Positions 2,370-4,968 of a stretch of 32,000 nucleotides of DNA are shown here, one piece after another; position 1 is the first letter of the stretch, and every line of letters starts with the position of its first letter. The notes under the pieces are model-generated. The model did not search any database, was not told where the DNA came from, and saw nothing but the letters and a program-made list of their open reading frames with translations. The position numbers were made by a program, and so were the translations under genes. This stretch comes from an uncultured Clostridium sp. (lineage in GTDB: Bacteria > Bacillota > Clostridia > TANB77 > CAG-508), in NCBI GenBank assembly GCA_947647595.1, contig CANSKZ010000009.1, positions 21,072 through 53,071 on the forward strand, written 5' to 3'.

Positions 2370-4271
2370 ATGAGTAAAAAAATTATATCAGAAGTATTTT
2401 TAACTTCAAAATATGTTACAGAAGAATCTTGGCTAAATTTAATTTTTGAAGTTTCGAAACTAAATGGTCGATTTAAGAAATGGGATTTATTTGTCAAAAT
2501 TGAATTAAATACAGTACGATATTTCATTAGTTCTTCCCGCGAATTGCCACCAGTTATCAGCCATTTAAGTGACTTTTTATTAAAACGAATTGATACAAAA
2601 GAAAAAATACATTCACAATTTAATTTTTTCTACTTTATAACCAATCGAGAAATTAATGTTCTAGATATTTATGATAAAAATGAAGTAAAAAAAGCAAGAA
2701 ATCTAACTATTTCACAAATTACAATATGGCCTTATTGCAAAGATAATTTTTTATCTTTCACCCAATTCTTTTTTGAAAAAAAGAATAAAAAAATCATTAA
2801 AAAATTAGCCTTATTTAATATTCCACATCGATTTTTAAGTATTGATTTTTCAAATTATAGCCGATTTTTTTATAAAAAAGATGCCATTAAATTTTTGGAT
2901 ATTCAAAAATCTTTGCATTTATTAAAAAGTGATGAAAAAGATAGTTTGCTTAAAGTAAATGGATTTCCCTATTTGAATAACAATTATTATTTGCATCTAA
3001 ATCGTTACGATTTTGATAAACATTCTTTAGTTGTAGGGGCAAGTGGCTGTGGAAAATCAAAATTAATTAGTTCGATTATTGCCAATATAAAGAATAATTC
3101 AAATTATAATTTAAAATATAAAGTCATTGTAATTGACCCGCATGCCGCAATGGAAGATGATATTGGCGGTTTAGATGATACAGCAGTTATTGATTTCAAA
3201 AAAGTAGAAGACAGTGCAAATTTATTTATGAATTCTGGTAAAGACATGGTAACTTCTACAGAATTAATACTTACTTTATTCAAGTCTTTAATTGCAGATT
3301 TATATAATTCAAAATTAGAACGTGTTTTAAGGCATAGCATTTATACATTACTTGTGAAAAAAGAATTATCTTTTTCAAATTTAAGAAAATTTATTTTAGA
3401 AATCGAATATCGAACAGAAATGATAAATGAATTAGAAGAGGAACTTCCAGAAAGCACGGTTGATTTTTTCTTAAGTGATTTTAATGAATTAAAAAATCAA
3501 TCTTATCAAGAAGCAATTGCACCCATTATTTCGTTTATTGATGAAATGCAAATTTTGCCTGTTTTTAATCAAGAAGATAGGAAAATGAGAAATATTGAAG
3601 AAATTGTAAAAGATAATTTTTTAACCATTTTTTCTTTAGATCAAGTTTCGCTAGGTGAAAATGTTACAAAAACAATTGCAGGATTTGTAATGGGGCAGAT
3701 TTTGCAATTAGTTCAGGGAATGTCATTCGAGGAACATATTATTTTTGTAATTGATGAAGTTGCGGTTGTGGAAAATCCAATTTTGCGTCGTTTTTTATCA
3801 GAAGCTAGAAAATATAATCTTTCTTTGATTTTAGCACAGCAATATTTTAGTCAAATAAGTGAAGAGTTACAAAAATCAATTTTTTCAAATGTGCTTAATT
3901 ATTACATATTTCGTGTATCACGAGCAGATGCACAGATTTTAGAATCAAATATTCAAATGGAAGTTGCTGTTCATGATTCTTATCGAATACGCATGAAAAT
4001 TCTAACAGAATTAGCAAATCGAGAATGTATTTTGCGTGTAAGTAGTAATGGAAAAGTTTTACCAGCTTTTAAAGGAAAAACGCTGGATTTTGTTTCACTT
4101 CCAAGACAAAACAAAAGTCAAATATTAAGCACAAATTTGCAAGTAAAAAATAAAAACAAAATCAAACAAGAAATGAAAAAAATTACCTTTCATATTGGTG
4201 AAAAAATTAATTTAAAAGACATTATGAGCTCGCAATCAACAGGTAGGAGGAGGATTCATTTAAATGAATAA
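2370..4271 (+). CDS. FtsK/HerA-superfamily P-loop ATPase, TraD/TrwB/VirD4-like (coupling-protein-like), no evident TM segment
   Basis: Motifs present:
- KHSLVVGASGCGKSK (Walker A), followed by VIVIDPHAAM;
- IIFVIDEVAVV (Walker B);
- ARKYNLSLILAQQYFSQI.

This order and spacing recall T4 coupling proteins and DUF87 ATPases. The N-terminal ~215 aa have no long hydrophobic stretch. The gene overlaps the next ORF by 8 nt. Confidence 0.6.
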   Translation: MSKKIISEVFLTSKYVTEESWLNLIFEVSKLNGRFKKWDLFVKIELNTVRYFISSSRELPPVISHLSDFLLKRIDTKEKIHSQFNFFYFITNREINVLDIYDKNEVKKARNLTISQITIWPYCKDNFLSFTQFFFEKKNKKIIKKLALFNIPHRFLSIDFSNYSRFFYKKDAIKFLDIQKSLHLLKSDEKDSLLKVNGFPYLNNNYYLHLNRYDFDKHSLVVGASGCGKSKLISSIIANIKNNSNYNLKYKVIVIDPHAAMEDDIGGLDDTAVIDFKKVEDSANLFMNSGKDMVTSTELILTLFKSLIADLYNSKLERVLRHSIYTLLVKKELSFSNLRKFILEIEYRTEMINELEEELPESTVDFFLSDFNELKNQSYQEAIAPIISFIDEMQILPVFNQEDRKMRNIEEIVKDNFLTIFSLDQVSLGENVTKTIAGFVMGQILQLVQGMSFEEHIIFVIDEVAVVENPILRRFLSEARKYNLSLILAQQYFSQISEELQKSIFSNVLNYYIFRVSRADAQILESNIQMEVAVHDSYRIRMKILTELANRECILRVSSNGKVLPAFKGKTLDFVSLPRQNKSQILSTNLQVKNKNKIKQEMKKITFHIGEKINLKDIMSSQSTGRRRIHLNE

Positions 4272-4968
4272 AAAAGAAGCAATGGTAATTGCAAATAAAG
4301 TTTTTGAAAATATTTTTAGGCAAAAATGTCCCTATCATTTAGAAGAAATTTTAACCGAATTTGCTTTTGATATTAAACTTCCCCAAAAAGTAATTGACAA
4401 TACAACAGGAGAAGAAACTTGGGCAAGTTCAATTAATCCAACTAAATTTATTACACAAAAAAATTCAGAAAATTTTAATAATGGAAAAGGCTGGATGCTC
4501 AAAAAAAGAGAAATAAATAGTTTAGAAGATATTATAAAATTGTGGAAAAAAGTAAATTTTACAACAACCGAAAGAATTTATGATTCAAGCAATATTTCGC
4601 AATCTGATACAATTTATAGTTCTGAAAATTTATACCGCTGTAACGATTGTAGAGCATGTAAGAATTCGTTATATTTAGATGGTGGAAATAAGTTAGAATA
4701 TTGTATTGCATCACAAAGAAGTTCGAATTCTTCGTTTTGTATTCGTGTAGATGATTCAGGAAGTTGCACAAATAGTTATAATGTAATTTGTTCAGCTAAA
4801 ATTAGCAATTCCTTATTTATTCAGGATTGCAACAGTTTGCATGAATGTATTTTTTGCTCACATATTTCGAATCGAAAATATTGTATTTCCAATATGCAAT
4901 TTGAAAAAGAAGAATATTTTGAAATAAAAAAAGAAATTGTAAAATGGATTTTAAGTGGAAAAAAATAA
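4264..4968 (+). CDS. Cys/Ser/Asn-rich repeat protein of unknown function (predicted solenoid-like C-terminal half)
   Basis: 234-aa ORF whose start overlaps the upstream stop, with SD aggaggagg upstream. The C-terminal ~110 aa contain at least 7 repeats of an N-S-x-x-[YF]-[C/x]-[IV] unit at 9-13 residue spacing, with 11 Cys in a 90-residue stretch. I recognise no family. Confidence 0.55.
   Translation: MNKKEAMVIANKVFENIFRQKCPYHLEEILTEFAFDIKLPQKVIDNTTGEETWASSINPTKFITQKNSENFNNGKGWMLKKREINSLEDIIKLWKKVNFTTTERIYDSSNISQSDTIYSSENLYRCNDCRACKNSLYLDGGNKLEYCIASQRSSNSSFCIRVDDSGSCTNSYNVICSAKISNSLFIQDCNSLHECIFCSHISNRKYCISNMQFEKEEYFEIKKEIVKWILSGKK

Follow-up and report, generated by a model that had tools for sequence, protein, structure and literature searches.

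The window described here, that is, the whole stretch of 32,000 nt that was analysed (uncultured Clostridium sp., TANB77 lineage; assembly GCA_947647595.1, contig CANSKZ010000009.1, positions 21,072 to 53,071 of the forward strand), carries at positions 2370-4968 the gene of a soluble P-loop ATPase and, overlapping it, the gene of a cysteine-rich partner protein for which the name CysR was coined. The pair has largely been shown to be a self-contained, translationally coupled, old and vertically kept chromosomal operon, and its ATPase does not serve a conjugative element as coupling protein. Tentatively, the pair is read as an ancient, self-contained, inducible cytoplasmic translocase complex, which we consider quite possible. 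The features of the two genes are given below, with nucleotide positions referring to the window and residue numbers to the proteins.

2370-4271, + strand: soluble VirD4/TraG-HerA-class P-loop ATPase of 633 amino acids (aa), assigned from Pfam, PADLOC, PHROG, AlphaFold2 (AF2) and Foldseek
ATPase residues 1-215: private N-terminal domain, soluble, with a predicted beta-rich alpha/beta fold (AF2)
ATPase residues 216-575: RecA-like core, with a helical domain inserted at about 293-393, between Walker A and Walker B
ATPase residues 576-633: tail, disordered in the AF2 model, kept in the Clostridia clade and absent from the Patescibacteria homologues
4246-4253, + strand: Shine-Dalgarno sequence of CysR, GGAGGAGG, strong, within the last ATPase codons
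4264-4968, + strand: CysR, 234 aa, cytoplasmic
CysR layout: N-terminal alpha/beta region at about 1-100, nine repeats at 105-212, and a terminal helix ending at W228
CysR C-terminal motif: C195-x2-C198-x-H200-x6-C207, followed by IANMQFEKEEY, conserved

Both genes were present as the first-pass annotation had described them, a 633-aa ATPase and a 234-aa Cys-rich repeat protein whose open reading frames (ORFs) overlap by 8 nt (AATGAATAA). The location of the Shine-Dalgarno sequence inside the 3' end of the ATPase gene indicates translational coupling, and the coupling proposed in that annotation is further borne out by the recurrence of the 8-nt overlap; the two genes are co-inherited. Among 62 loci in which the ATG of CysR could be placed, the 8-nt overlap was the commonest junction (36/62), with 11 nt in 6 more. 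The genome survey used one genome per species and returned 292 species with a relative of the ATPase, of which 80 loci were examined with up to 10 kb on each side. CysR was encoded directly 3' of the ATPase in 80/80 of these species-level loci. Clustering of the ORFs within 10 kb on either side at 82 loci recovered the ATPase in 82, CysR in 82 and an AraC-type regulator in 73, the next family reaching only 14. A metagenome scan with the CysR profile gave 80 loci with a G+C content of 0.19-0.59, and at the 66 loci where the upstream DNA exceeded 600 nt the ATPase lay directly 5' in 62. Relatives of the ATPase were thus found together with the Cys-rich gene, neither absent nor degenerate, across both surveys, rather than always beside relaxases and never with that partner, and the idea of a pair stands.

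The ATPase-CysR pair occurs as a single copy per species in at least about 290 species of low-G+C uncultured gut Clostridia. The identities of ATPase and CysR to the window pair are correlated (r = 0.92) and track those of neighbouring core genes, and the genomic flanks of the pair differ between species. In 98% of 128 pairs it was CysR that showed the higher conservation, the mean difference being 7.5 points. CysR homologues (43% identity) with no ATPase upstream were seen at L163 6480-7172, where a divergent 311-aa minus-strand ORF occupies the ATPase position, and at L162 1591-2274; these are possibly pairing exceptions or rearranged loci.

The ATPase is placed in the VirD4/TraG-VirB4-HerA assemblage on the basis of its sequence matches and the Foldseek ranking, so that the coupling-protein-like or HerA-type class suggested at first pass holds in the form of a VirD4/TraG-HerA class free of transmembrane segments, by Pfam, Foldseek and hydropathy. 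All four motifs quoted there were found (KHSLVVGASGCGKS at residues 217-230, VIDPHAAM at 254-261, FVIDEVAVV at 459-467 and RKYNLSLILAQQ at 480-491), and an 80-sequence alignment showed invariance of the Walker A residues G223, S225, G226, G228, K229 and S230 (GxSGxGKS), of D462 and E463 in Walker B, and of R480-K481-Y482...Q491. No transmembrane segment was detected along the ATPase, in agreement with the reported lack of N-terminal transmembrane helices; the highest Kyte-Doolittle 19-residue mean was 1.27 (residue 293, in the helical insert) versus 2.2-2.6 in neighbouring membrane proteins. Pfam cut-offs were all passed narrowly, with 31.8 bits for DUF87 (cut-off 23.2; residues 207-259 only), 26.9 for TrwB_AAD_bind PF10412 (20.5) and 22.9 for TraG-D_C PF12696 (22). 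Neither Pfam PF02534 (T4SS-DNA_transf) nor the NCBIfam VirD4-like conju_CD1115 matched the window ATPase, and its remoter sequence relatives, outside the pair-associated families, carry T4SS-DNA_transf PF02534 and TraG-D_C domains. The PADLOC search returned mad8 (8.5e-18) with weaker HerA and SspH matches, the PHROG search returned PHROG 5156 of unknown function (4.9e-22), and the top sequence-profile match in the PDB was the anti-phage HerA 8xau (4.9e-5). NCBIfam HerA_antiphage scored 13.8-19.8 bits against cut-offs of 800-850.

The AF2 model of the ATPase had a predicted local distance difference test (pLDDT) score of 78. Foldseek against the PDB ranked DndH-C first (3e-10) and TrwB second (6.6e-10; TM-score 0.55-0.61 normalised on TrwB), then HerA complexes (1e-8 to 1e-9, TM-score 0.3-0.44, root-mean-square deviation ~16 A; Sir2-HerA complexes likewise 1e-8 to 1e-9) and VirB4. 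As modelled, the structure of the core is closest to the TraG/VirD4 side, without the membrane anchor. No meaningful similarity was found between the N-terminal domain and the adjacent TrsD-like protein, or between the whole ATPase and the VirB4 of the window beyond the P-loop. By tblastn, the ATPase had no match in 50,697 GenBank phage genomes, and matches in 72,556 plasmids were all remote and partial (22-26% identity, mostly Bacillus), none reaching 80% query coverage. Against the BFVD viral models, two Bacillus phages gave full-length structural matches, each through a large protein that is uncharacterised (S5MSQ0 of phage JL, 1.2e-18, and gp156 of phage G, 1e-17); gp155 of phage G, next to gp156, likewise matches. 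The ATPase gene is broken across two frames in several metagenome-assembled genomes (MAGs) (L005/L006 8124-10035, L013 and L078-L080) in which CysR is intact; this could be a frameshift, an assembly error or a pseudogene.

CysR belongs to a protein family, 822 homologues of which were found, that matches none of the libraries searched here. Profile searches against Pfam, NCBIfam, PADLOC, PHROGs and PDB sequences gave no family and nothing meaningful, there was no nuclease, Sir2 or TIR-like signature, and no relative was found among the 2.9 million viral contigs of IMG/VR. The family profiles of hydrophobic and of small residues over residues 105-212 have autocorrelation peaks at lag 12 only (0.45 and 0.41), and this stretch is therefore divided into nine 12-residue repeats. 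In a set of 34 sequences from across phyla, D36, W94, D115, R161, S177, F197, C198, Y206, C207, I208, N210, M211 and Q212 were invariant. Of its 12 Cys residues (5.1%), C198 and C207 are thus fixed, C195 (31/34), C168 (29/34) and C159 (26/34) are largely kept, and those at positions 22, 126, 129, 132, 147, 176 and 189 are substituted in at least half of the sequences (Ser, Ile, Trp, Asn and others taking their place); C195 and H200 were each retained in at least 90%. With 7 of 12 Cys positions so replaced and only two invariant, the view of CysR as a multi-site metal-binding Cys-rich protein was weakened. From its sequence, CysR would be a narrow solenoid with small and hydrophobic ladder positions and one conserved Cys/His knuckle. 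The AF2 model (26-sequence alignment) had a pLDDT of 40 and was unusable, for which reason no fold search was made. A relationship to TBCC was considered and is not relied on: the weak matches were confined to 3 of 26 members (E 0.037) and were not reproduced in the Patescibacteria homologues.

The pair is also found in Patescibacteria, with identities of 33% for the ATPase and 33-38% for CysR. Exhaustive profile searching among 1.84 billion representative proteins returned ~60 full-length ATPase clusters, then a second tier of ~570-aa proteins matching residues 5-575. Among them is P0301, which aligns with the window ATPase at 33% identity along its full length and lacks the last 55-60 residues; its relatives are labelled by the source as Daviesbacteria, Roizmanbacteria and 'Patescibacteria group'. 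In 6/6 Patescibacteria contigs fetched, the ATPase gene was followed, with a 4-nt overlap or a few nt downstream, by a 220-245-aa CysR homologue of 29-38% identity that shares the C-terminal motif, ECxFCSH...KYCIANMQFEKEEY...W. Locus L171 (Patescibacteria GCA_021817125.1) has six tandem CysR paralogues after the ATPase at 7743-12122, L153 has two copies at 358-1758, and the remaining 169 loci are single-copy. The tandem paralogues have diverged in their N-terminal and central parts and have kept the C-terminal ~45 residues with the Cys/His-KYCIANMQF motif.

Passages of a recent survey of Patescibacteria (Quinonero-Coronel et al. 2025, PMC12102498) report 5,713 homologues of VirD4-type type IV coupling proteins (T4CPs) in 2,918 of 3,035 genomes and VirB4 in 2,417; just 148 of the 5,713 lie near virB4. 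These bacteria's type IV secretion system (T4SS) is described there as chromosomal, relaxase-less and MPF-FATA-related, with TrsD and VirB4, and often near dnaA/dnaN. In Ca. Southlakia epibionticum, t4cp is dispensable and the remaining T4SS genes are essential, for which reason the authors raise the exaptation of t4cp (PMC12102498). The Patescibacteria ATPase-CysR pair probably belongs to the 'T4CP homologues encoded away from virB4' of these passages, being likewise chromosomal, nearly ubiquitous and usually far from virB4; the passages do not describe a conserved downstream partner of T4CP homologues. The organism of the window differs in being a Clostridia MAG and in adding a dedicated regulator. 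Literature searches on DUF87 in Patescibacteria and on T4SS in TANB77 found nothing useful.

The regulator, its putative site and the operon promoter lie directly upstream of the pair.

1198-2001, + strand: Rob-like AraC-family regulator, with an AraC domain of two helix-turn-helix (HTH) motifs and a GyrI-like/Cass2 ligand-binding domain
2292-2321, + strand: conserved palindrome ACTGAT-N18-GTCAGT, a hairpin resembling an intrinsic terminator for the regulator gene, and candidate operator beside the -35 region
2339-2347, + strand: extended -10 sequence TGATATAAT (TATAAT at 2342-2347), putative promoter of the ATPase-CysR operon

The first-pass annotation had described a two-gene module and thereby left out the regulator, which was directly 5' of the ATPase and co-oriented with it in 73 of 82 genome loci (~90%) and is a third, clade-specific gene of the module. 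It was absent from the Patescibacteria and higher-G+C loci and is confined to the loci of low-G+C gut Clostridia. Its Pfam matches to HTH_18 (62.4 bits) and Cass2 (28.8 bits) were both over the cut-off. The best NCBIfam match was RobA over the full length (1.2e-19), and because its 71 bits fall below the equivalog cut-off of 380 the protein is called Rob-like and not Rob. The domain order, an N-terminal double HTH and a C-terminal GyrI-like domain, is shared with Rob. The regulator has a nitroreductase gene as its neighbour in the window (572-1186) and likewise in L010, and in two distant lineages a nitroreductase gene lies between regulator and ATPase (L086 9411-9989 and L116 5459-6028). Nitroreductase is a classic function of the Mar/Sox/Rob regulon in E. 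coli, and its recurrence here hints at a shared xenobiotic-type (Mar/Sox/Rob-type) regulon.

The pattern ACTGAY-N8-26-RTCAGT has one match in the window versus 0.05 expected, and the hairpin has a folding energy of -17.3 kcal/mol (z = -5.3). The palindrome was found within 200 nt upstream of the ATPase in 92/99 loci with the regulator versus 4/31 without it. By blastn of the intergenic regions, window positions 2288-2347 were conserved in most loci, on both strands, with the pattern ACTGA(C/T), T-run, loop, A-run, GTCAGT and T-run, then a -10 hexamer ~20 nt on; such a -10-like hexamer stands at the same position past the palindrome in most relatives, and the right arm lay a median of 46 nt from the start codon. 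The core CTGAC/GTCAG is conserved where the ATPases are just ~50% identical, and its variants are symmetric (CCCAAC/GTTGGG in L019 and L046, GTGAC/GTCAC in L113). One sub-clade has kept three ACTGA half-sites and lost the T/A-run pairing. The palindrome certainly has the shape of a terminator. In relatives, the stop codon of the AraC-type gene abuts or falls within it, and the two genes are separated by 67-150 nt versus 368 nt in the window. Given this conservation and the strict co-occurrence with the regulator, the palindrome is likely an operator.

Under the translocase reading, the Rob-type regulator would bind ACTGAY-N18-RTCAGT on the -35 side of the promoter, and a small-molecule or xenobiotic signal would turn the operon on. 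Judged from its structural relatives, the ATPase would work as a ring, CysR would dock on this motor as a regulatory or substrate-selecting subunit of a cytoplasmic complex, and the polymer translocated by the motor would most likely be DNA.

Downstream of the pair, T4SS genes are present in two blocks.

6170-6727, + strand: TrsD-like protein, start of an operon 1.2 kb downstream of CysR
6752-8533, + strand: VirB4
8543-9583, + strand: CpaE/MinD-like ATPase
9672-12119, 12589-13608 and 13621-14574: gyrA, dnaI-like and dnaD-like genes, between the two T4SS blocks
14781-16314, - strand: 102-aa transmembrane protein, VirB6-like polytopic protein and T4SS_pilin-like protein

The VirB4 operon was confirmed at 1.2 kb from the pair, across an ORF-free stretch, as annotated at first pass. 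The T4SS of the window is relaxase-less and interleaved with replication and gyrase genes, an origin-proximal layout like that in the published passages on Patescibacteria (PMC12102498). Neither a relaxase or integrase nor a second T4CP was found in the 32-kb window. The VirB4, TrsD-like and CpaE-like ATPase genes were within 10 kb of the pair only in L007, L008 and L013 (at least 76% ATPase identity), with the T4SS gene set kept in place in L008 and L013, and in 77/80 species no T4SS gene was present within 10 kb. The VirB4 neighbourhood of the pair is a local accident, limited to the genus of the window.

The window is a piece of chromosome close to the replication origin, and neither plasmid nor phage. 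It carries gyrA, dnaX, ybaB, recR, the signal recognition particle RNA and tRNAs, and gyrB lies just 5' of the corresponding region on the contig of a near-identical genome. Its G+C content is 26%, and that of the ATPase-CysR pair equals that of the flanks, with no compositional anomaly. The nearest genomes are uncultured gut Clostridia MAGs, and Candidatus Scatovivens faecipullorum is among the remoter relatives. The recR gene of the window looks split into two overlapping ORFs in different frames (24816-25178, 120 aa, and 25075-25413, 112 aa), either by an assembly frameshift or as a pseudogene. Two paralogous SleB-type cell-wall hydrolases with Lys/Glu-rich linkers (16949-17803 and 18071-18910) and a G5-glucosaminidase (20376-21812) adjoin the T4SS-like membrane genes and are possible VirB1-type wall-opening enzymes.

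Between the pair and the T4SS operon, the ORF-free stretch at 5615-6075 (- strand) is 88% identical in L008/L013 versus 61-85% for the neighbouring proteins. It ends at a minus-strand terminator hairpin (5657-5624) that shows four compensatory base-pair changes, and folds with -140 kcal/mol (z = -8.7). An Rfam search of this stretch gave no match, and it is a candidate new structured RNA of ~450 nt, 5' of the T4SS operon. The + strand has, at 5502-5573, one more perfect TTGACA-17-TATAAT promoter, the third, with TG; a terminator hairpin (5548-5573) comes ~15 nt behind it, and the transcript would be of ~40 nt.

The pair is flanked by two loci resembling type I toxin-antitoxin (TA) systems.

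2028-2286, both strands: type I toxin/antisense-RNA-like locus 1, with a + strand small RNA (sRNA) from a perfect promoter at 2028-2056
2103-2134: bidirectional terminator of locus 1
2138-2206, - strand: toxin-like peptide of locus 1, MFKRILKTLALLIILSMIDDEE, 22 aa, hydrophobic, with its promoter at 2286-2258 and ribosome-binding site (RBS) AAAGGAGG
1994-2021, + strand: left copy of a 28-nt direct repeat that brackets locus 1 (right copy 2289-2316, 82% identity)
5097-5409, both strands: type I toxin/antisense-RNA-like locus 2, with a + strand sRNA (promoter 5097-5125, terminator 5168-5191)
5246-5332, - strand: toxin-like peptide of locus 2, MTSYDLIWKLIILLLSNNKNDKDQENKE, 28 aa, hydrophobic, with RBS AAAGGAGG and a terminator at 5238-5217

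The promoters at 2028 and 5097 are perfect TTGACA-17-TATAAT sequences, with convergent minus-strand promoters, and terminator-like sites number 7 versus 0.8 expected. Direct repeats in both loci give the sRNA complementarity to the start region of its own toxin mRNA; in locus 1 the repeat is of 29 nt (2073-2101 and 2186-2214, 86%), the + transcript being complementary to the toxin start region. The two loci share a 24-nt stretch (88% identity) at the sRNA start, and neither sRNA was matched in Rfam. By their predicted features, a hydrophobic peptide ORF with RBS, a convergent sRNA and start-region complementarity, both loci conform to type I systems. The convergent toxin mRNA and sRNA and the hydrophobic peptides with charged tails are shared with Fst/par loci, as is the bidirectional terminator at locus 1, whereas at locus 2 the terminators are separate; the peptides cannot be recognised as Fst and had no Rfam or Pfam match. 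Locus 1 was present only in L001, L002 and L007 (genomes at least 97% identical) and missing from L008, L013 and all others, and locus 2 was missing from L007, whose ATPase is 97% identical. The 28-nt repeat duplicates the stop codon of the AraC-type gene and the left arm of the palindrome, a flanking duplication that is an insertion signature and marks locus 1 as an insertion. The two TA-like flanks seen at first pass are real but do not mark an accessory or defence island, both loci being recent insertions (locus 2 at strain level) and not parts of the module. The small TA cassettes are apparently mobile in this group of species.

Several points weigh against reading the pair as an inducible translocase of its own. 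It is gene order alone that suggests a physical complex between ATPase and CysR. The link between regulator and palindrome is correlative, and the palindrome may plausibly do no more than terminate the regulator gene. Monomeric binding to asymmetric sites is usual for Rob/MarA-type proteins; the marboxes of Rob, MarA and SoxS are asymmetric, whereas the putative site here is palindromic, and the target operon here is not an efflux pump. The six tandem CysR paralogues suggest a cargo or adaptor that has diversified more than they do a fixed regulatory subunit. The same two unusual lineages also harbour both the pair and a relaxase-less T4SS near the origin, the two being adjacent and co-oriented in this genus and with no other T4CP in the window, and this favours a somewhat unlikely alternative, close to the soluble coupling protein with adaptor offered at first pass, in which the ATPase is the VirD4-type coupling protein of that MPF-FATA-like T4SS and CysR is an adaptor (cf. 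DotN) or a cargo. Another protein would then tether the ATPase to the channel, in the way suggested for TraJ/TraI of pIP501, and a CysR cargo would be recognised via its conserved C-terminal motif. The TrwB fold, the TrwB_AAD_bind and TraG-D_C matches above threshold and the PF02534 domain of the nearest relatives outside the pair-associated families are in line with a coupling role, as are the co-oriented position of the pair 1.2-2.3 kb upstream of TrsD-VirB4 in the genus of the window and the retention in the six tandem paralogues of only the C-terminal ~45 residues. Published precedents exist for T4CPs without transmembrane helices and for auxiliary coupling subunits: TraJ of pIP501 has no membrane anchor of its own, TraI being its proposed tether, and DotN is a small cytosolic auxiliary subunit bound to the T4CP DotL (PMC12857230). 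Passages of the Patescibacteria survey place this type of T4SS in one of the two lineages that carry the pair, and since T4CP genes there normally lie far from virB4, the missing VirB4 adjacency is weak counter-evidence (PMC12102498).

Against a coupling complex stand the lack of a transmembrane anchor and of any small membrane or tether gene in the module, the 77/80 species with no T4SS gene within 10 kb, and an operon with its own regulator and promoter and no co-transcription with the T4SS. CysR, unlike a cargo, shows even conservation over its whole length and slower evolution than the ATPase, and the window ATPase is unmatched by the NCBIfam VirD4-like model and PF02534. In passages of PMC12102498, T4CP homologues occur in ~500 more Patescibacteria genomes than VirB4, and t4cp is dispensable in Ca. 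S. epibionticum. The VirD4/TrwB/TraG proteins share with the ATPase the P-loop core with an all-helical insert and the hhhhDE and RKY...Q motifs, but they have an N-terminal transmembrane anchor (usually two helices) in place of the 215-aa soluble alpha/beta domain and are linked to a relaxase or T4SS, whereas the ATPase here is unlinked to any relaxase and, in 77/80 species, to a T4SS. The TraJ and DotL systems likewise sit within T4SS or relaxosome loci, unlike the pair; no TraI-like transmembrane protein is encoded with ATPase-CysR, and CysR has no sequence similarity to the DotN of DotL-DotM/DotN. An integrative and conjugative element (ICE) remnant, with the ATPase as ICE coupling protein and the pair and VirB4 genes in one mobile element, is hardly tenable. 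The TrsD/VirB4, cell-wall hydrolase and DnaD/DnaI-like genes close by would fit it, but the window has no relaxase or integrase, and gyrA stands among its T4SS genes, which adjoin gyrB and keep their place in related species. The pair also occurs away from T4SS genes in 77/80 species and in Patescibacteria, with no compositional anomaly and with remote plasmid matches, and the ICE remnant was rejected on synteny in the neighbourhood survey.

An anti-phage or anti-plasmid defence role, which the first-pass annotation offered as an ATPase-effector pair, is improbable. The HerA/DndH/mad8-like ATPase would here scaffold and activate a CysR effector, as in Sir2-HerA and DUF4297-HerA, and the best named profile (mad8, 8.5e-18), the best PDB profile (anti-phage HerA 8xau), the best fold (DndH-C) and the Sir2-HerA fold matches (1e-8 to 1e-9) all point that way, as do the two-gene architecture of ATPase and partner and flanks that vary between species. 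A soluble, presumably ring-forming ATPase, a beta-rich N-terminal domain and an often-overlapping partner gene are shared with HerA-NurA, Sir2-HerA, DUF4297-HerA and DndH/SspH/mad8. The partner in those systems, however, is a nuclease, Sir2 or other effector; CysR has no recognisable effector signature and is the slower-evolving member. The pair is lineage-wide, single-copy in ~290 species and not patchy or island-like, with identities that follow neighbouring core genes. CysR has no viral-contig relative, the ATPase has none in phages and only remote partial ones in plasmids, and no recurrent defence genes were found nearby (82 loci, within 10 kb on either side). HerA_antiphage scores ~20 bits against a cut-off of 850, the proposed control is of a Rob-type, ligand-sensing kind, and the TA loci of the supposed island are recent. 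The gene mad8 is one of an eight-gene system, the match here is at the domain level only, and CysR is unmatched in PADLOC; passages of the MADS preprint do not state the nature of mad8. The translocase reading remains the preferred one. Beta-solenoid/CARP proteins (TBCC, RP2, CAP) are characterised by regular repeats whose hydrophobic and small residues face inwards and by a beta-helix fold; CysR is strictly periodic at 12 residues in its sequence.

T4CP-like ATPases are near-universal in Patescibacteria and yet mostly unlinked to the T4SS that is essential for epibiotic growth, according to passages of PMC12102498. The present analysis adds that at least one ATPase family, probably of this kind, is invariably accompanied by a dedicated and highly conserved partner outside known families, that the pair is common to Patescibacteria and a large clade of uncultured gut Clostridia, and that a ligand-sensing regulator and an operator-like palindrome accompany it in the Clostridia clade. 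A tempting misreading is also corrected, the TA loci and VirB4 genes by the pair being local accidents. The role of the pair can now be tested, through the two-protein complex, the regulator with its DNA site, and co-occurrence. A bolder proposal, which we hold to be unlikely, is that the pair is the missing substrate-recruitment module of the essential, origin-proximal and relaxase-less T4SS behind the host-dependent lifestyle of Patescibacteria, that an entire lineage of small-genome gut Clostridia carries the same apparatus, and that CysR, as a new family of solenoid proteins, is an adaptor or translocated cargo released on a chemical cue sensed by the Rob-like regulator. If true, two unrelated reduced-genome lineages would share a T4SS-based cell-to-cell interaction, and its first candidate substrate would be named.

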